In this document: positions 1,953 through 10,956 of the stretch, piece by piece
Layout of the letters: the number at the start of each line of letters is the position of its first letter
How positions within the stretch are numbered: position 1 is the first letter of the stretch
NCBI GenBank assembly: GCA_964247135.1
Contig: CAXTTL010000137.1
Coordinates: 1 to 12,890, forward strand
Reading direction: 5' to 3'
Length of the DNA stretch: 12,890 nt
Source: an uncultured Deinococcales bacterium
GTDB lineage: Bacteria; Deinococcota; Deinococci; Deinococcales; JAAFIG01
The notes under the pieces: model-generated
Databases searched by the model: none
What the model was told of the DNA's origin: nothing
What the model saw: the letters and a program-made list of their open reading frames with translations, nothing else
Program-made: the position numbers and the translations under genes

Positions 1953-1991
1953 AAAAAAAAGCATAAACGATGGGAAGATCATCGTTTATGC
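1953..1991 (-). terminator. Intrinsic terminator of the sigma-like gene
   Basis: 12-bp stem GCATAAACGATG/CATCGTTTATGC followed by T8 on the - strand, 11 nt after the stop. Confidence 0.9.
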
Positions 1992-2002: not shown

Positions 2003-2749
2003 TTAAGCCTGTAGAGCGATCCAGAGACGTTTAAAGTTCTCTTTGGCGCTTTGTAACTGGTCTTGATCGCAGTCCTCGTCGGTGAACGACTTTTCGATCA
2101 AATCCTGGTCCCATTGTGGAAGTAGCTTGAGCACATTGTTGATTTCTTCACGCAACCCGTTTTTTACTGGGGCTGCGATCAAATCTCCAAGTGTTCCGCC
2201 TTCCTCACTTAATTCCTGTTCGAAGGACATTATTGCTCCTTCGATTTGAAGAATCTCCTGCACTTGCTCGAGAGTGCTCCCGCATTCAAACGCGATTTGC
2301 TCGAGGTTCACTGTGCCCTTTTCCAGAAGCTTAAAACGAATTGCTTGTATTTGTTTTAGTTTCTGTAAGGTTTGTTGTGGAACACCTAACATACCGTGCC
2401 TTTCTTGCGAGACGAATCTCTCAAGTTTTTCTCGCATCACCCGAATGACCCAGTGTGATGGTCTGACGCCCTTCATGTACGACAAGTCGATGCTCTTGAT
2501 TGCTTCCCAGACTGCAACTGTTGCTGTCTGAATCAAGTCCATTAACGTGTCATAACAGGTGGAACCGTAACTTGTGGCGAGTCTGAACGCGTCACGAATG
2601 GCGACCGGTTGGTAAAACTGAACCAGTGCGTCGGTTGCTTCACGAACTTCCATCTCATTGCCGAATTTTCGCGCCGTAAAATAACGGAGTTCTTGCTCGG
2701 TGGTGAGTGCCTTAAAGCTGCCGGTTGCCAATTTCAATAATTCGTTCAT
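2003..2749 (-). CDS. Divergent sigma-70 family protein (RpoD/RpoS-like regions 1.2-3, truncated region 4)
   Basis: LTTEQE (region 1.2), MDLIQTATVAVWEAIKSID (2.2), LEQIAFECGSTLEQVQEIL...MSFEQEL...TLGDLI (3), LREEINNVLKLLP (4.1); SD GAGGTG. Confidence 0.85.
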   Translation of the reverse strand: MNELLKLATGSFKALTTEQELRYFTARKFGNEMEVREATDALVQFYQPVAIRDAFRLATSYGSTCYDTLMDLIQTATVAVWEAIKSIDLSYMKGVRPSHWVIRVMREKLERFVSQERHGMLGVPQQTLQKLKQIQAIRFKLLEKGTVNLEQIAFECGSTLEQVQEILQIEGAIMSFEQELSEEGGTLGDLIAAPVKNGLREEINNVLKLLPQWDQDLIEKSFTDEDCDQDQLQSAKENFKRLWIALQA

Positions 2750-2765
2750 GTGTCACCTCAAAAGA

Positions 2766-2833
2766 AGCCTAGGGTGAATCTCGAATTTGGGTGTTGCTTT
2801 TCTCACAGCTTTGTTTTGGTGATGCTTTAAGAT
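2766..2833. promoter_or_regulatory. Divergent promoter pair around one CRP-like box
   Basis: TGTTG-cttttc-TCACA (2792-2807, 8/10 to TGTGA-N6-TCACA); TAGGCT on - (2771-2766) and TAAGAT on + (2828-2833) each start 28.5 nt from the box centre. Confidence 0.6.
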
Positions 2834-2887
2834 TGGAATAGCTCAAGTCTTTGGGCCAATCGGTGTTTCTCAGATTTGTTGGCGCGA

Positions 2888-2909
2888 TTTGGGATTCGTT
2901 TGGGATTCG
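2888..2909 (+). repeat. Tandem direct repeat TTTGGGATTCG x2
   Basis: Exact copies at 2888-2898 and 2899-2909. Confidence 0.85.
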
Positions 2910-2958
2910 TTCAACCTCAGCCAGGTGCCGCCGGTCGTCTGGCAAAATTTAAATTCTT

Positions 2959-2988
2959 GACCGTGGTTGTGTCTGCGGTCTTTTTTTT
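2959..2988 (+). terminator. Intrinsic terminator on the + strand
   Basis: GACCGUGG-uugugu-CUGCGGUC (two G-U pairs valid only on +) followed by T8 (2981-2988). Confidence 0.8.
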
Positions 2989-3043
2989 ATGTCATGGTGG
3001 TGAACGTGTTTGGAGTTTGATACGGTTCCTTTCGAATTGCATG

Positions 3044-3076
3044 AAAAAGGGGAGTGAACTTGATTCACTCCCCTTT
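3044..3076 (-). terminator. Intrinsic terminator of the primase gene, possibly bidirectional
   Basis: AAAGGGGAGTGAA-cttga-TTCACTCCCCTTT with a T5 tail on -, 18 nt after the stop. Confidence 0.85.
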
Positions 3077-3094
3077 GCTTTTCATATTTTCGGG

Positions 3095-4168
3095 TTATTG
3101 AATGGTTTGGATTCGTTTCTTTAGGTTGTCTGCTCCGTGAATGATCAAAATGTCGTTGGCGTCTAAATTTTGGTTTGGCTGGTTGATGCTCAGCCGTCGA
3201 GCCTTGATTCCTTTGCGCTCGAGTCTTTCCGAGAGGTCTTTTTGGTGGTGCTCTCCCGCCTTGTCATGGTCGGTGATGATGATGCAGTCTCGAGATTCAA
3301 GGTTGGTTTCCCAACCCATCGGCAAGCGTCCTCCTGGCAGCCCGATGATGGGGTATTTGTCTCCGAGCGCAACGACCAGCGCTGCCGCGTTCAATTCACC
3401 TTCGATCAAGATGACGGCTCCGGGATGCTCGAGGCTCGAGGCGTGATACGGTGCTGGTAAAATGCAGTCTCCCACGGTGGGACCGTCGTAGCGAAGGATG
3501 TTCTTTTGTTTGAGTTCGCATTTGCTCTCGAAACCTTGATACCGGACTTTAAACCAGACGGTTTGTTGCCCTTGAATAAAGGGCATGACGATTCTGCCGT
3601 ACCAGGTTTTGATTCGTTTTGGGGCGCCGAGTTCAAGACTTTCTTGAATTAAATGCCATTCCATGACGCCAAAGCGCATGGTGGTGACGATTGAATCTAG
3701 TGCTCGTCGTTGTAGGTACTCAAATGCTGTGCGTGCGGCTTTTGATTGTGGCTCGAGCAGCGCCTGATGACTTTTTTCGATGATTGGTTGCATCCAGGGT
3801 TCGGTGGTTGCGGGTACGAAGACTTTGTTTTGGGGGATGGATTTAAAGGTTTTGGTGGTTGTGCCCGTGTTGGTGATTCCAGCCAACTCTAACGCTCGGC
3901 GATACGCGCCTTTCTGGTCGTAAGCACCGCCGTATGATGATTGCAACCAATTGAAGACATTGCCCTTTTCGTGGCAGCCAAAGCAGTAGTAGTGGTCTTG
4001 CCAAACCCTGAAACTCGGTGAACGTTCGGCGTGAAATGGACACAGCGACTCGAGGATACCCTTGCGGGAGGGCAGTCCAAGGTCGCTGGCGATGATTTCA
4101 CGTAAATCAATGGCTTGAATCGCGCTTTGACGAAGTGCTTTAAAGTGGTCGTTTGCGGTGGTGAGCAC
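3095..4168 (-). CDS. DnaG-type primase (CHC2 zinc finger + TOPRIM), no C-terminal helicase-binding domain
   Basis: CPFHAERSPSF...YYCFGC zinc finger; GRIVMPF; IEGELNA and DHD TOPRIM motifs; DAND near the end. GTG at 4168 (preceded by AGGA) preferred; the ORF track start is 4261. Confidence 0.88.
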   Translation of the reverse strand: MLTTANDHFKALRQSAIQAIDLREIIASDLGLPSRKGILESLCPFHAERSPSFRVWQDHYYCFGCHEKGNVFNWLQSSYGGAYDQKGAYRRALELAGITNTGTTTKTFKSIPQNKVFVPATTEPWMQPIIEKSHQALLEPQSKAARTAFEYLQRRALDSIVTTMRFGVMEWHLIQESLELGAPKRIKTWYGRIVMPFIQGQQTVWFKVRYQGFESKCELKQKNILRYDGPTVGDCILPAPYHASSLEHPGAVILIEGELNAAALVVALGDKYPIIGLPGGRLPMGWETNLESRDCIIITDHDKAGEHHQKDLSERLERKGIKARRLSINQPNQNLDANDILIIHGADNLKKRIQTIQ

Positions 4169-5381: not shown

Positions 5382-6305
5382 TTATTCGTGTGATGCTTCG
5401 AGCGCACGCTCGAGGGCTTGGGTTACGTCTGCCATGTCGTCCTCAAAATCGTCTTGCATGAAGGCCTCGAGGGTGAAGGTCGCCTGACAACGGGCTATGC
5501 CTTGCTTGGTGAGGTCGTATCTATGTTTGTCGACCTTGATAAAGCCTTGAACCTGCAATTCGTTGAGTTTCTTGCAGATGCTTTCACGTTGGGCGTTGAT
5601 GATCGATGCCAGCCAGCGCTGGTTTGAGGCTGGTCCAGTTTTCCAAAGGGCGTGCAAGATTCGGGTTTCGATGTCCGCCGATTTTGAGATTTGCCACGAG
5701 ATCAAATCGGCCAGCGCATCGAGCGTCTCGGTGCTTAAATTGGTTTCGCGCACGATTCGACATTCTCCCGCAGCCTCGAGGTTAAAGACTTCATGGACTC
5801 GGTCTGCGCCCGGCCAGATGCAATTGACTGCCAAACTCATGCTCGGTTTTTTGCCGTCTGAGGAGTAGAGCAAAACTGCTCCGGTGACGATCCGAAAGAC
5901 CTCGCTCGAATCGATCACGCTGCCCTCCTCGAGCACGAAATGATCGTCCTCGCTCGGGGTGTAGATTCGGGTGCCGACCTTGATCTTCTTGCTCGTGCTC
6001 CAACCACTTGGGATGGTTTCGTCGTAAAGCACAACTTCTTTCTTGTGGCGGTTGGCGTAGTGGATGCCTTCACGCGTTCCGATGTCGTAATCGCCTCGCT
6101 CATTGGCAATGATCACAGCGTCGCAACCACGAATGATTTCTTTTTGTGATTCTTTGAGTTCAACTTGATTGGTGCGCACTTGGATGGCAATGACTTCTTT
6201 GGAGTCGAGTTCGGCTTGTACCGCTTCGAACGGAGCCGTAAATTGATTGCCGATGATGGCAACCGTTTGATTTTTAAAGAACCGATCTGCCCGCACTTGA
6301 TTCAT
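5382..6305 (-). CDS. CRP/FNR-family regulator with an N-terminal NDT/deoxyribohydrolase-like domain
   Basis: C-terminal HTH NQRWLASIINAQRESICKKLNELQVQGFI; barrel remnant VFRIVTGAVLLYSSDG...LEA; N-terminal IRGCDAVIIANERGDYDIGTREGIHYANRHKKEVVLY. ATG 6305 (GGGGG upstream) preferred to TTG 6326. Confidence 0.75.
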   Translation of the reverse strand: MNQVRADRFFKNQTVAIIGNQFTAPFEAVQAELDSKEVIAIQVRTNQVELKESQKEIIRGCDAVIIANERGDYDIGTREGIHYANRHKKEVVLYDETIPSGWSTSKKIKVGTRIYTPSEDDHFVLEEGSVIDSSEVFRIVTGAVLLYSSDGKKPSMSLAVNCIWPGADRVHEVFNLEAAGECRIVRETNLSTETLDALADLISWQISKSADIETRILHALWKTGPASNQRWLASIINAQRESICKKLNELQVQGFIKVDKHRYDLTKQGIARCQATFTLEAFMQDDFEDDMADVTQALERALEASHE

Positions 6306-6401
6306 ATTGCCCCCCGTTTGAATCAATGTATCCAGTCAGACCGAGGGGTTGTAAAGTTTTTGGTTTTTGAGGTTTTTTTCTTTGGCTTGATGCTTAAATT
6401 G

Positions 6402-6467
6402 AAATTAGGCACAAGCTTAAAGTTGCGGCTTGTACCTGATTTGGTTTCCTTATGCACTGGGCATAAG
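6402..6467 (-). terminator. Two hairpins after CDS 6491..6862, probable terminator
   Basis: Imperfect stem 6402-6416/6428-6442 and CTTATGC/GCATAAG at 6449-6467. Confidence 0.45.
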
Positions 6468-6907: not shown

Positions 6908-8530
6908 TTATGACGAGGTTTGGACTTGATTTTTGCCGTTGGCTTTGGCGCGGTAGAGCGCCTGATCGGCTGCCTCAAGCATGACTTTCGGGTGGTCGCG
7001 CCGGTCGGTCAAACCAAAACTCGCAGTCACTTTGAGGTCTGGATTGATTTCCTGCCAAGTGTGGTTTTGGATAGCCAATCGCATTCGTTCACAAATGGAT
7101 TTTGCCGTACCCAACGTCGCACCCTTGAAGATGATCACAAATTCCTCGCCACCATACCGCGCATAGAAATCCATTTGCCTGAGCACCGATTTGGTGATTT
7201 TGGCCAGCATCTTCAAGACCTCGTCGCCGGTGGTGTGACCGAAGGTGTCGTTGACTTTTTTAAAGCTGTCGCCATCAAAGAGCGCCAGACAGAATGGTCC
7301 ACCCAAGTCATGAATGTTTTTCAGCGTCTCGTCAAAGAACCTGCGGTTTGGTGCCAGGGTCAAGCCGTCTAGGCGCGAAAGCTGGTCGAGCGAACGCACT
7401 TGGGTCTCGAGGTTTTGACTGTGAACCTCCAGCCGTTCCGCCTCGCGTTTGGCACGCTCCAGGGCCAGTTTGGTCTCAAAACGTGCCGCCTCGCGGCTGG
7501 CTTCGGCGCTGTGGAGGTCCAGCATGATCGCGAGGTAGGTTTTGTGGTGTTCGAGGGCTGATTTGAAGTCAGCGAGCTGCTCAAAGGTCTGGCTCATCGT
7601 CAGCTCTGCCCGAGATTTGAGGTCGGCTGGCAGGTCACGCTCGAGCGCAGCCTCGAGCAGGGGCAAGGCGCGTTGCGGCTCATTGGTTTCGAGGTACATG
7701 ACGGCCAGATGCGTTTGAGCTTGCGCCAGGGCAATGCCCCTAGGCGCAGTCGGCTCAAAGTCGTATTTGGCTCGTGCCCGCTCGAGCGATGTTTCGAGGA
7801 TTTTGAGGGCTTCTTGGTTTTGACCGAGCGCCCGGTAAATTTGGGCGCTCGAACTGTACGCCGATTCGGCCAAAGTATGGCTTTTTAATTCCCTCGCTGT
7901 GGTGAAAGCGAATTTTAAGCTTTTTTTGGCGGATTCAAACCAATTGTTGGCCCGGTTAGGGTTGTCTTCTTTGAGGGCGTTCTGACCGAGGTTTAAATAG
8001 GCAAACGCCAGGTTGGCACTGGTCACCGCCTCACGGTATTTGTCACCTTTTTTGCGAAATATCTCTTGGGCTTTGCGGTGTTCGGTTAGCGCCATTTCGT
8101 TCTCGCCCAATCGCTGGTGCAATCCGGCGATGTTGTTGAGCACGATGCCCTCGAAGATGACAAGCTTATTCTGATTGGCAAGTTCAAGGGCATTCATAAA
8201 ATGTCTCGAGGCGTCGCTGTAATCTCCGAGGTTGACGGTGATCTCGCCAAGCGCGTTGAGGGCTTTGACTTGGTACTCGATGTTGTTGACATCTTTGCCG
8301 TGCTCGAGCGATTGATGCCAGGCGATGCTGGCGCCGCTCGAGTCTCCGTTGACCTGGCAGCAGCGTGCCAGCGTGGCATAGGCGAGGCTTAAGAGTGCCG
8401 TGTCGCTGAGTTTCATGGCACTGTCGAGCGTGTCGTGTGCCAATTCCAGCGCTTTTGATGGTTGCGTCTCGAGGTATTCAAGGGCTTTGGCGCACCTGGC
8501 TTCCTCGAGGGAGATGGCTTTATCTTTCAT
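6908..8530 (-). CDS. TPR-repeat diguanylate cyclase (GGDEF)
   Basis: TPR/MalT-like repeats (ALNALGEI, VLNNIAGL), coiled-coil linker, DGLTLAPNRR, DGDSFKKVNDTFGH..GD, I-site RQMD, A-site RYGGEEF, ADQALYRAK. Confidence 0.95.
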   Translation of the reverse strand: MKDKAISLEEARCAKALEYLETQPSKALELAHDTLDSAMKLSDTALLSLAYATLARCCQVNGDSSGASIAWHQSLEHGKDVNNIEYQVKALNALGEITVNLGDYSDASRHFMNALELANQNKLVIFEGIVLNNIAGLHQRLGENEMALTEHRKAQEIFRKKGDKYREAVTSANLAFAYLNLGQNALKEDNPNRANNWFESAKKSLKFAFTTARELKSHTLAESAYSSSAQIYRALGQNQEALKILETSLERARAKYDFEPTAPRGIALAQAQTHLAVMYLETNEPQRALPLLEAALERDLPADLKSRAELTMSQTFEQLADFKSALEHHKTYLAIMLDLHSAEASREAARFETKLALERAKREAERLEVHSQNLETQVRSLDQLSRLDGLTLAPNRRFFDETLKNIHDLGGPFCLALFDGDSFKKVNDTFGHTTGDEVLKMLAKITKSVLRQMDFYARYGGEEFVIIFKGATLGTAKSICERMRLAIQNHTWQEINPDLKVTASFGLTDRRDHPKVMLEAADQALYRAKANGKNQVQTSS

Positions 8531-9534
8531 CGAGCGATTTTTACGGCTTGTGAGATGAGGTCGCCCTCATGGCTGATGACGTTTGGCGTCACAACAGGCA
8601 GATAGGCTGTACCGTTTGTTTCGTACACCTGGGCGGTGGTGACTTGGACTTTGTCGCCGTTGCTTAGGTCATAGACGACAGAACTGGTATTGCCAACACC
8701 ATAGGTGGTTTCACCGATGATCGGGTGCGTTGAATACAGTTGAATGTCTTGAGCGAAAAATTCCGCACAGCTTGCGGTTACGCGGTTGACCATGACTGCC
8801 AACTTTCCCGTCCACTGCGTTGGGTTTTCGAGTGTTAATACTTCTTTGGCGGGTTTGCCTGCGATCTGCTCATAATAGACGCCGTCGCGGTAGCCCTCGA
8901 GCTTTTGATTGTACTTTTCGACACTCAGCCGCTCAAAGTTGCCGATGAAGGCTCCAACCCCTGCCGCACATTGCTTTGGCGTGCCACCTTGGTTGTCGCG
9001 CAAATCGACGATGATGGTCTCGCCTTTTTGGGCATTGACCAGATTGACGAGTTGGTGGATCCGATCTGCGGTTTTCTCGTTGTTAAAGGCTGGTATTTTC
9101 AAACGGTAAACACCGATCGTCACCAGCTCGAGACTGGGCAACTGTTCGCTGTCGTCAATGGAAGAGCTTGCCGTTTGACGGCTGTTTGGGTGTTTGGTGC
9201 TCGCTTTTTGGGTCGGATTGAGGTTGATGGACAAGTAGTTCGTGTGTTTGTCGCTAATCTCGAGGACCATCGATTGCAGGATTGGCACTGATTTCTCAAT
9301 CGCGCATTGGGCATTCGTGTGGCATTCCGCCTCGAGCTGCGCCTGGTATTTGGCTTGCAATGCCTCAAGATCAACATTTGAGAATCCGTTGTAGAGCTTC
9401 ATGCGGTTCGTCGCCTCGGTAAACAGGGCTTGGGCTGGCGAAGCTTTGTTCTGGTTGTTGCCTGTGGCTTGACTGATCCCACAGACCATTAACATGATGA
9501 GCAAAATGGCGTAATGAGTTGATTTGTTTTTCAT
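8527..9534 (-). CDS. Secreted S41-family peptidase lacking a PDZ domain
   Basis: Signal peptide (..VCGISQA), DKH, VDLRDNQGG, TASCAE, GETTYGVG; SD AGGAG; ATGA overlap with the DGC gene. Confidence 0.9.
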   Translation of the reverse strand: MKNKSTHYAILLIMLMVCGISQATGNNQNKASPAQALFTEATNRMKLYNGFSNVDLEALQAKYQAQLEAECHTNAQCAIEKSVPILQSMVLEISDKHTNYLSINLNPTQKASTKHPNSRQTASSSIDDSEQLPSLELVTIGVYRLKIPAFNNEKTADRIHQLVNLVNAQKGETIIVDLRDNQGGTPKQCAAGVGAFIGNFERLSVEKYNQKLEGYRDGVYYEQIAGKPAKEVLTLENPTQWTGKLAVMVNRVTASCAEFFAQDIQLYSTHPIIGETTYGVGNTSSVVYDLSNGDKVQVTTAQVYETNGTAYLPVVTPNVISHEGDLISQAVKIAR

Positions 9535-9630
9535 GGTTGCGCTCCTGCGTTGACGTTGCTTGAGAAGACCTTGTGGTTATTCTATGTGACTTTGGCTTTT
9601 ATTTTAGTGTCTTTTCCTGTTGGGATGGCA

Positions 9631-9659
9631 AACGACCCCACAGGAAATGTGGGGTCGTT
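9631..9659. terminator. 12-bp hairpin between the two S41 genes (terminator or stability element)
   Basis: AACGACCCCACA-ggaaa-TGTGGGGTCGTT; only a short U tail on -. Confidence 0.6.
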
Positions 9660-9684
9660 AGGGGTTTAAAAATGTTTGGGTTCT

Positions 9685-10956
9685 TTATTTGGCGACTTCG
9701 ACCGCTTTTTCAAACAGCGTGTCTTGTCCCGTCGCCGCGAAAGTATCGAGGTCATCCGACTGGGCGATGTCGGGTGTGACTGCCTCTGGATAGGGATCGC
9801 CGTTGACTCGGGTGCTTCTGAGAGTTGCGACTTGTACCCCGCCTTTGTTGATCAATGGAAAGATGAAAGTCCCGGTGTTTCCCACCCCAAAGGTTTTCTC
9901 GCCAATGACTGGGGCGCGCTTAGCGAATTGCACGTCGGCCGCGAAATACTCGGCGCACGATCCGGATTCTTTGTTGACGATCACACTGAGCTTGCCCTTC
10001 CACAGGGCGGGATTGGCGATGGTGTAGACCGTGCCAAGTTTGGTTCCATCCGGGGTTCGTGTGTAGACCTCCCCGTTTTTGTAGCCATCAATTCTCGAGC
10101 CTGTTCGGCTGCTTCTGAGGCGCTCGAGGTCGCCGATGAACGCCCCTACGCCACTGAGGCATTCCGTGGATAGCCCACCACCGTCGTTTCTGAGGTCAAC
10201 GATCAGGCTGGTGACGTTTTTGGCTTCGGCGTCATGGACAAGTTGATGAATGGTTTTGCCTGTGTCGGGATTGATGAAACTGGGGATGTTGAGTCGGTAC
10301 ACTCCATTGCCCTGATCCTCTAAATAGGGCAATTGGGTGTATTGGAAGACGGCTGGAGTGGCGGTCAGTTTTATGGTTTGGGTGCCGCGCTCGACCACGT
10401 ATTCGATTGGTTTGCCCTCTTGGGCCATCGCCGCGTGTTCAACTGACAATGTCTCTCGTGTGTTGCCCCATTGTTTGCCGTTAAAGCTCAAAATCAGGTC
10501 GCCACGTTTGAACCCTGCGCCTGCACCAGGGCTTCCTGGCAAGACTTCCAAGATTCTGACAGCATTGCGTTTGAACAATGGGGTCAAGCGAACCCCGAGT
10601 ATTGGTCTGGGTGTAACTACGCCGCCCGGTGTCGTGCTGTCCATTAAGTTTTTGTAATCCTCGGGTGAGTAGTAGTTCACGTGGTTGTCGTTGAGGTCTT
10701 TGAGCAAATTTTCAATGATTGGCTCTGCCGTGGCGAAGGGACACGCTGGATCAACCCCACATTTTTCGCTGAGCTGGGCGCTGTACTTTTGATCAAGCGC
10801 CTTTAGATCAGCCGTTGAAAACCCGTTGTACTGGCTGCTCACGTAAAAAATGGCTTGGTCGTACAAATCCCTGGCGGGGCTGTTGACAATGGTTTGTGCG
10901 TAGCCTGCCCCTGCGAGCAGCAAAACAGCCAGGGTTGTTGCGATGGTTCGTCTCAT
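9685..10956 (-). CDS. Secreted S41-family peptidase with PDZ domain
   Basis: Signal peptide (..AGAGYA), DNH, PDZ (LGVRL...VLPGSPGAGAGFKRGDLILSFNG), VDLRNDGGG, SGSCAE, GEKTFGVG; SD GGAGG and -10 TACAAT (10979-10974). Confidence 0.93.
   Translation of the reverse strand: MRRTIATTLAVLLLAGAGYAQTIVNSPARDLYDQAIFYVSSQYNGFSTADLKALDQKYSAQLSEKCGVDPACPFATAEPIIENLLKDLNDNHVNYYSPEDYKNLMDSTTPGGVVTPRPILGVRLTPLFKRNAVRILEVLPGSPGAGAGFKRGDLILSFNGKQWGNTRETLSVEHAAMAQEGKPIEYVVERGTQTIKLTATPAVFQYTQLPYLEDQGNGVYRLNIPSFINPDTGKTIHQLVHDAEAKNVTSLIVDLRNDGGGLSTECLSGVGAFIGDLERLRSSRTGSRIDGYKNGEVYTRTPDGTKLGTVYTIANPALWKGKLSVIVNKESGSCAEYFAADVQFAKRAPVIGEKTFGVGNTGTFIFPLINKGGVQVATLRSTRVNGDPYPEAVTPDIAQSDDLDTFAATGQDTLFEKAVEVAK

Follow-up and report, generated by a model that had tools for sequence, protein, structure and literature searches.

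A divergent spacer upstream of a truncated sigma-70-like gene in an uncultured Deinococcales bacterium probably encodes a small RNA. Judged from the sequence, this RNA acts, with a probability of roughly 0.7, as a non-overlapping, divergently transcribed antisense repressor of the translation of its neighbor. For the loci of Thermaceae that carry homologous genes, the same antisense reading is highly probable from sequence comparison. The window analyzed here is a whole contig of 12.9 kb (12,890 nucleotides) from a genome (G000) that is 84% complete. The predicted non-coding RNA (2840..2988, + strand, about 149 nt) is defined by a promoter, a terminator, the lack of a coding signal and an arrangement resembling that of homologous loci. 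The initial annotation had tied a divergent small RNA to the sigma-like gene, with co-induction through a shared CRP box and a possible role as ligand of the sigma-like protein. The statistics of terminator and -10 element, together with the recurrence of the layout beside homologous genes, uphold the link to the gene; the co-induction and ligand ideas are not upheld.

The intrinsic terminator of the RNA (2959..2988, +) consists of a stem at 2959-2980 followed by T8 at 2981-2988, with a hairpin energy of -10.8 kcal/mol. As first described, it is a strong + strand signal: the region folds to -12.0 kcal/mol on the + strand and -6.5 kcal/mol on the - strand, and when the spacer is shuffled with its dinucleotides kept, an equally good terminator arises in 6 of 5000 cases (9 of 5000 given the T8). 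The statement that no credible + strand gene lies upstream of it also stands, and the frames 2851-2952, 2863-2952 and 2876-3124 are rejected, all being negative on a coding model trained on the genome. Across G000, 11 of 471 co-directional spacers contain a terminator on the antisense strand, against 0.45 expected. A tRNA or T-box on the same strand precedes 5 of the 20 fetched terminators that lack a same-strand upstream gene. Three others without an Rfam match mark further sRNA candidates in G000, namely L145 (contig C79, ~11640), L146 (C109, ~6100) and L148 (C68, ~7975).

The predicted -10 element of the RNA, TAAGAT (2828-2833, +), places the start at about 2840-2841, and the same hexamer occurs at the homologous locus L207. 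Together with TAGGCT on the - strand, it is one of the two best -10 sites in 2700-3100 according to a matrix trained on 354 leaderless-type promoters of G000. Both sites are weak (15th and 17th percentile), and the one preceding the RNA has no evident -35 element. The two boxes are mirrored as initially annotated, each lying 28.5 nt from the center of a CRP-like box (2792..2807, unstranded) that matches 8 of 10 consensus positions.

Ensemble folding predicts a 5' stem-loop in the RNA (2844..2891, +). The hairpin GCUCAA/UUGGGC proposed for this end can form, but the ensemble favors a longer stem, 2844-2860/2878-2891. The repeated 11-mer pointed out in the initial annotation is present as two tandem copies (2888..2909, +) starting at 2888 and 2899. 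The second copy overlaps the antisense segment described below (the seed) and the first repeats part of it. Shuffling yields a comparable tandem repeat in 3 of 5000 cases, but 15 of 2731 real intergenic windows contain one. On its 3' side the seed is followed immediately by a GC-rich stem, an order that the homologues share; this stem corresponds to the second hairpin of the initial annotation (2920..2943, +) and is recovered with pair probabilities of 0.63-0.85. Folding of the whole RNA is not above that of shuffles (z -1.12 and -0.96). The suggested cmscan comparison with Rfam gave no match above the gathering threshold for the window, nor for 10 homologue loci. At the DNA level, the spacer has only chance matches in its own genome, in 18 genomes of the family, and in plasmids and phages. 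A protein sponge of the CsrB/RsmZ type is rejected: the RNA has two GGA motifs, neither in a predicted hairpin loop, and CsrA, like Hfq, was not found in the 84%-complete genome.

The predicted target of the RNA is a sigma-70-like gene on the opposite strand (2003..2749, -) that encodes 248 aa. Regions 2 and 3 are present in its product (Pfam Sigma70_r2/r3), with PDB and fold matches to SigA and RpoS, and the protein scores under every NCBIfam cut-off. In sigma factors, the region 4.2 recognition helix mediates -35 recognition, and region 2.3 contains a tryptophan pair. Alignment with SigA indicates that the window protein stops short of the sigma4.2 recognition helix (RERIRQIE) and does not keep the YATWW motif with the region 2.3 pair. 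The predicted structure of the product is a helical sigma fold, not a small hydrophobic peptide. Its predicted -10 element, TAGGCT (2771-2766, -), leaves a leader of about 10 nt, compared with 10-13 nt in homologues, and lies 22 nt from the ATG, compared with 23-25 nt in relatives. An intrinsic terminator (1953..1991, -; -15.4 kcal/mol, T8) closes the gene, which is therefore likely transcribed singly.

Relatives of this protein form a truncated family. Word-index and representative searches with a single protein query returned only a 98% variant and ordinary sigma factors; full-length matches with equal size and truncation emerged in a per-genome search of the phylum (364 genomes). These relatives are about 240 aa long and lack the sigma4.2 recognition helix. 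A profile matched 22 of the 364 genomes: G000, 18 genomes of family f5, and three with weak partial matches, set aside as probably ordinary sigma factors. Relatives from another family of the same order bear Meiothermus and Thermus names, which puts the host among the Deinococcota. The profile also matched 65 protein clusters, and a protein search matched 11 plasmids of Thermus and Allomeiothermus, where the relatives are annotated only as 'sigma-70 domain-containing protein'. The genes sit on Thermus/Meiothermus conjugative plasmids as well as on chromosomes. On the Thermus plasmids, a type IV transfer region precedes the sigma-like gene, which heads a run of small genes that includes ssb in two plasmids and, in one, also ardC and Rad52-like genes. 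In the viral contigs and phages searched, neither relatives of the protein nor the RNA motif were found. At locus L012 of genome G042, a short frame (L012:7730-8140) lies about 2 kb downstream of the sigma-like gene, and its start is RRXRR-like.

The window protein is likely, although not proven, to be orthologous to this Thermaceae family. In length, N-terminus and point of truncation it agrees with the family proteins. It scores 57.6 bits on a profile of the family from which it had been left out, against 55.0 bits for the best ordinary sigma factor. A tree groups it with the family at a support of 99/97, but joins long branches in doing so.

The contig itself encodes two ParB-like proteins, a CHC2-Toprim primase and a transposase. 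Relatives of the primase within the same family are neighbors of ParA/ParB or conjugation-like genes, and the contig is therefore likely to derive from a plasmid-like element. The primase gene (3095-4168, -) encodes a stand-alone CHC2-Toprim protein of about 357 aa; a relative in genome G005, on a contig with ParA/ParB, has a fused helicase-like domain. When the primase was used as a search anchor, none of its relatives was found beside a sigma-like gene. Its terminator (3041..3076, -) bounds the module of small RNA and sigma-like gene. Downstream of the sigma-like gene lie two orphan genes (690-1493 and 1537-1923, both -), each bounded by a terminator; neither has a convincing family match, and the longer one has no Atlas match. 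Elsewhere on the contig, the product of 5382-6305 (-) has a C-terminal winged helix and weak CasR/CARF-type matches, and is possibly a ligand-sensing regulator of the element. A TPR-GGDEF gene preceded by two S41 peptidase genes (6908-10956, -) is unusual cargo for a plasmid-like contig, and a long imperfect hairpin between two genes (6389-6456) came up as a chance match to a miRNA model. Three G000 spacers (C36 at 15785, C48 and C131) contain an identical 16-nt hairpin with a T-tail, possibly a small repeat element or RNA family.

The homologous loci supply the expectation against which the window is read. Counting the window, 27 loci were fetched, 18 of them distinct. In 17 of the 18, a segment antisense to the start of the sigma-like gene lies 45-240 nt upstream on the divergent strand. 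It is equaled in 0-9 of 100 shuffles; the step of the scan was coarser for the shuffles, which favors the real sequence. The remaining locus, L199, was wrongly taken to lack the RNA, which is displaced 1.3 kb upstream and was found by a covariance model (R1) built from 14 RNAs other than that of L199 (E 2e-4). Over the full 3.7 kb of the L199 locus, no segment pairs better with the start site than this seed does. Loci L238 and L260, considered as further RNA loci, proved to be chance matches inside coding genes. In all 15 listed homologues, a divergent -10 element is followed by 6 nt and then by a hairpin region starting with G. The layout continues with a pyrimidine-rich single strand and a GC-rich stem, and TTG-type -35 hexamers occur at the Thermus loci. 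Conservation beside homologous genes, which the initial annotation had named as a check, takes the form of a recurring divergent structured RNA with a self-matched seed.

The single strand of each homologue complements the Shine-Dalgarno sequence, spacer and start codon of its own gene. The codons that come next are paired by a second arm, and the extended duplexes, of -40 to -68 kcal/mol, are ones that are often bulged at or beside the start codon and that follow lineage-specific first codons. The spacers AAAAC, ACAAA, CAAAA, ACAAC and ACAUC are each met by matching RNA letters. Over the spacer columns, cognate partners form 38 of 50 possible Watson-Crick pairs, against 27.3 for permuted partners (0 of 20000 permutations as good), a contrast that the permutation counts overstate because the homologues are kin from about four lineages rather than independent. 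A test for G-U asymmetry is flat (11 vs 8). Covariation at homologous loci is seen in the spacer pairs between RNA and mRNA; in the stems, it is modest for the Meiothermus type, with three double-sided changes, and not above shuffles for the Thermus type. The RNAs of different lineages have little in common beyond the seed and the 3' stem. On the sense strand, the copied Shine-Dalgarno sequence is not followed by an ATG in 12 of 14 copies; the L207 copy retains its ATG, and in L198 the ATG stands too close. In the Meiothermus-type copies, an A-for-G change spoils the sense Shine-Dalgarno sequence and keeps a G-U pair in the antisense reading.

Gene and RNA also occur together. Among 68 genomes of family f5, the gene is present in 18 and a strong RNA match in 18, with 17 common to both, a count to be read knowing that R1 matches its training loci by construction; an unfiltered search adds G215 as an 18th genome with both. 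One orphan RNA and no confirmed orphan gene were seen. The orphan, a Thermus-type RNA in genome G244 (L237:1470-1553), has a -10 element and an anti-Shine-Dalgarno seed with no adjoining sigma-like gene, and the G244 genome has no match to the sigma-like gene at E 1e-8. It may be a relic, or may confer immunity to incoming plasmids.

Several features of the Thermaceae loci stand beside this pattern. On Thermus plasmids, a hypothetical gene of about 330 aa that follows the sigma-like gene (L225:15228-16220; L226:23376-24356; L227:28471-29463) shares its promoter layout and ribosome-binding site, and is a co-top predicted target of the RNA. In these three plasmid stretches, the sigma-like gene and the next gene rank at the top among 453-574 candidate starts, whereas on pMESIL02 first place among 344 goes to the sigma-like gene alone. 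The second target gene has no counterpart in the window. The Thermus-type 3' stem (alignment A4, columns 55-94; L207:1308-1395, -) has a nearly invariant GAGUA/GAAA internal loop resembling a loop E or sarcin-ricin bulged-G motif, and the Meiothermus-type stem has GNRA-type loops. Inverted repeats lie in the 70 nt upstream of the sigma-like ATG at L203, L207, L209, L210, L197 and L214. According to folding predictions, they would hide the ribosome-binding site in read-through transcripts and so act as a second brake. The opening cost in such transcripts is up to 18 kcal/mol. Occlusion is strong in several Thermaceae loci; in the window it is ordinary, with 294 of 907 genes as high.

In the window, the seed (2904..2919, +) is mostly single-stranded, with an opening cost of 2.25 kcal/mol. 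It pairs with a target site at 2739..2760 (-) made up of the Shine-Dalgarno sequence (2760-2755), a looped-out stretch of 6 nt (2754-2749) that ends at the A of the start codon, and codons 1-4 (2748-2739). The pairing comprises 10 bp with the codons and 6 bp with the Shine-Dalgarno sequence (5 bp if the start is 2759). The duplex, at -18 to -19.4 kcal/mol, is much weaker than those of the homologues. Shuffled sequences match this pairing in 11 of 1000 cases, and real intergenic segments do so in 17 of 1500. Two further contacts are predicted: a weak one (-10.1 kcal/mol) between the 3' arm of the 5' stem-loop and codons 6-10, and one between the first 11-mer and the codons bound by the seed (-8.9 kcal/mol). 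The suggestion that the repeats are pairing seeds is therefore half right, the second repeat supplying the 5' half of the seed.

Among 4575 start regions of the genome, the cognate sigma gene ranks 9th with a 17-nt seed, behind eight chromosomal start sites, and 32nd with a 21-nt seed; the next gene of the contig ranks 349th or lower. An earlier query (2892-2916), which truncated the seed, gave nothing above shuffles and placed the sigma gene 1936th of 4560. In an 18 x 18 matrix of short seeds, the best partner of the window RNA is the window mRNA (-19.4, next -13.2), and the reverse also holds (next -12.0). In longer windows this specificity is lost: the window mRNA reaches -27.6 and -29.0 with two Thermus RNAs, against -27.7 with its own. 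Among G000 genes with an upstream spacer of at least 200 nt, an equally good divergent self-complement exists for 13 of 403 with a Shine-Dalgarno sequence and 54 of 991 overall.

The pairing in the window is thus only moderately significant by itself. The R1 model has no match at 2840-2988 (E up to 5) or anywhere in G000 (E up to 1), and the seed limits were taken from the homologues, hence chosen after the fact. For these reasons, the argument for the window is built on how promoter, terminator and seed position coincide with each other and with what the family leads one to expect. The window has the layout of the R1 family: the RNA is divergent from a gene truncated before sigma4, and a start-site seed precedes a 3' stem. 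The seed also sits between the best -10 site and a significant terminator, in a single strand just before the GC-rich stem, the position it has in the relatives.

The proposed mechanism follows from this layout. Once transcribed, the RNA would pair with the short leader (10-13 nt) of the sigma mRNA and block loading of the 30S subunit. The conserved complementarity to the mRNA argues for repression rather than co-induction. Its probable origin is a duplication of the 5' end of the gene, riddled with deletions and read from the other strand. Long bulged duplexes may dispense with Hfq and CsrA. The protein, by analogy with sigma factors, would retain the core-binding regions 2-3 without -35 recognition, compete with the host sigma factor and be harmful unless restrained, a proposal whose chances we put slightly below even. 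A core-binding sigma factor blind to the -35 element could displace the host sigma, which would explain the tight guarding of the gene. The pair would then be a type I toxin-antitoxin-like module, with the RNA as antidote. Alternatively, it would be a switch that fires briefly after plasmid transfer until the RNA builds up, with the RNA as a timer that ends the burst of expression. In its sequence, the RNA is complementary to the translation signals of the partner mRNA, as expected of a type I antitoxin. The pair is nevertheless not filed as a type I system, since toxicity is the defining feature of such systems and is here a conjecture. More broadly and more tentatively, conjugative elements of Deinococcota may carry type I-like or zygotic-induction modules in which the toxin is a -35-blind sigma factor that seizes RNA polymerase. 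The antidote would be a small RNA that is an inverted-read duplicate of the gene's 5' end and co-evolves with its ribosome-binding site, and in Thermus plasmids it would also silence the next gene of the ssb/ardC-type cluster.

Other explanations of the window deserve weighing. Its terminator could merely insulate the primase gene from stray + strand transcription or end a non-functional transcript, with the match to the sigma start arising by chance and the Thermaceae system, itself real, lost or never present here. This is unlikely but far from negligible: an equally good divergent complement accompanies 3-5% of comparable genes, neither sequence nor model matches the Thermaceae RNAs, the whole RNA folds no better than shuffles, the -10 element is weak with no evident -35, and the orthology of the protein is marginal. 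Against it, the complement falls between the best -10 site and a significant terminator, in a single strand before a GC-rich stem as in the relatives, and the protein has the length, N-terminus and truncation point of the family. It is also conceivable, though improbable, that the RNA is a trans-acting regulator with several host targets, activated by a CRP-family protein and co-induced with the sigma-like gene from the central box. The attraction of this account is that an 8/10 box stands exactly 28.5 nt from each of two weak -10 sites; this puts the box center near -41.5 of both starts, the norm for class II boxes (PMC3688515). G000 has at least six CRP/FNR-family proteins, DdrI of Deinococcus is described as binding this consensus (PMC11253593), and some host start sites pair with the seed as well as the cognate one. 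Yet the consensus is not enriched in G000 spacers over control spacings, its rise at class II distance from -10 sites is weak and non-significant, -10 sites on both sides accompany 4 of 316 intergenic 8/10 boxes, and no such box was seen when the homologous spacers were read by eye. The promoters of the homologous RNAs are of the plain -35/-10 or the extended -10 kind, and their -10 spacings are not those of the window. For the repeat region, the best host target (-24.9) is no better than those of shuffled seeds (-23.7 to -30.2), and Hfq and CsrA, as noted, were not found in the 84%-complete genome. Co-induction through the box is thus not borne out, and a function of 2792-2807 is unsupported.

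Two further accounts set the RNA or its DNA in a different role, and both are very improbable, the second slightly more so. The RNA could be a ligand or guide of the sigma-like protein that stands in for the missing -35 recognition, as in dCas12f-sigmaE systems; the absence of a sigma4.2 recognition helix and the joint travel of gene and RNA would fit. The variable part of the RNA, however, tracks its own translation start and not a DNA target elsewhere, and the RNAs of different lineages share little beyond seed and 3' stem. A partner gene of the kind that a dCas12f/TldR guide RNA has was not seen either: PF07282 was not found in the 84%-complete G000, and no TnpB/Cas12f family appeared among the scanned window proteins. 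The ligand idea of the initial annotation gained nothing from the comparison, the conserved feature being complementarity to the mRNA. The match could instead be a direct repeat at the DNA level, that is, an operator, a duplication relic or the relic of a small upstream ORF: the sense strand of the seed copies the start region, differences compatible with G-U pairing are not in excess, and the L207 copy keeps its ATG. Such a repeat would not readily explain a copy that lies within its own promoter-hairpin unit on the opposite strand, stays matched at a distance of 1.3 kb (L199) and survives without the gene in G244. Deletions around the ATG break the copy, and the A-for-G change of the Meiothermus type damages it as a ribosome-binding site and preserves it as an antisense partner.

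Antisense repression of the sigma-like gene therefore remains the preferred reading, and it has precedents in mobile elements. The c4 RNA of phage P1, which pairs in a bipartite manner, and the sar RNA of P22 occlude the ribosome-binding site of a harmful early gene. The RNAs described here differ in having no Rfam match and in targeting a sigma-like gene. Neither the RNA nor its pairing with the sigma gene was found described in Rfam or in a literature search that covered mostly open-access main texts; supplements of Thermus/Meiothermus transcriptome studies could list such RNAs. If confirmed, the family would offer an unusually clear case of RNA-mRNA co-evolution in a phylum where G000 shows no Hfq. 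It would also be a natural case of a mobile element turning a crippled sigma factor on host transcription. Culturable and genetically tractable hosts exist: homologues are carried by T. aquaticus YT-1 (p61), T. thermophilus JL-18 (pTTJL1802) and A. silvanus (pMESIL02).

A small hydrophobic toxin is usual in type I systems but not universal, as SymE and RalR illustrate. The pairs tisB/IstR-1, shoB/OhsC, zorO/OrzO and dinQ/AgrB likewise combine a divergent, non-overlapping small RNA with short complementarity, 21 nt in the case of IstR-1, and a block of translation, as outlined in PMC4147584. As characterized in that source, the antitoxins of these pairs attach to long 5' UTRs at a distance from the start site, whereas the leader here measures 10-13 nt and the Shine-Dalgarno sequence and first codons would be covered directly; TisB is a small hydrophobic peptide, whereas the protein here is a sigma derivative of 240-250 aa that may be toxic (PMC4147584). 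SymR, in the same account, lies opposite symE and overlaps it fully, whereas the RNA here is at least 80 nt away and forms an imperfect, bulged complement (PMC4147584). The dCas12f-sigmaE systems also join a sigma factor to a non-coding RNA, but here the complement of the RNA lies in the sigma mRNA and not in a DNA target, and no Cas12f/TnpB partner was found in the 84%-complete genome (compare PMC12259090 and PMC12259091). A parallel in the target is SigN of the B. subtilis plasmid pBS32, a plasmid sigma factor likewise restrained by antisense RNA and not by an anti-sigma factor, and described as a full-length protein that is toxic by out-competing SigA for core polymerase (PMC10601692). By that description, SigN is an active sigma factor with a regulon, whereas the protein here has no -35 recognition helix; the SigN antisense RNAs are long cis transcripts from promoters downstream of the gene, whereas a discrete structured small RNA is predicted to act here at the start site (PMC10601692). 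If confirmed, the pair would bear on the question raised by SigN of why plasmids keep harmful sigma factors.
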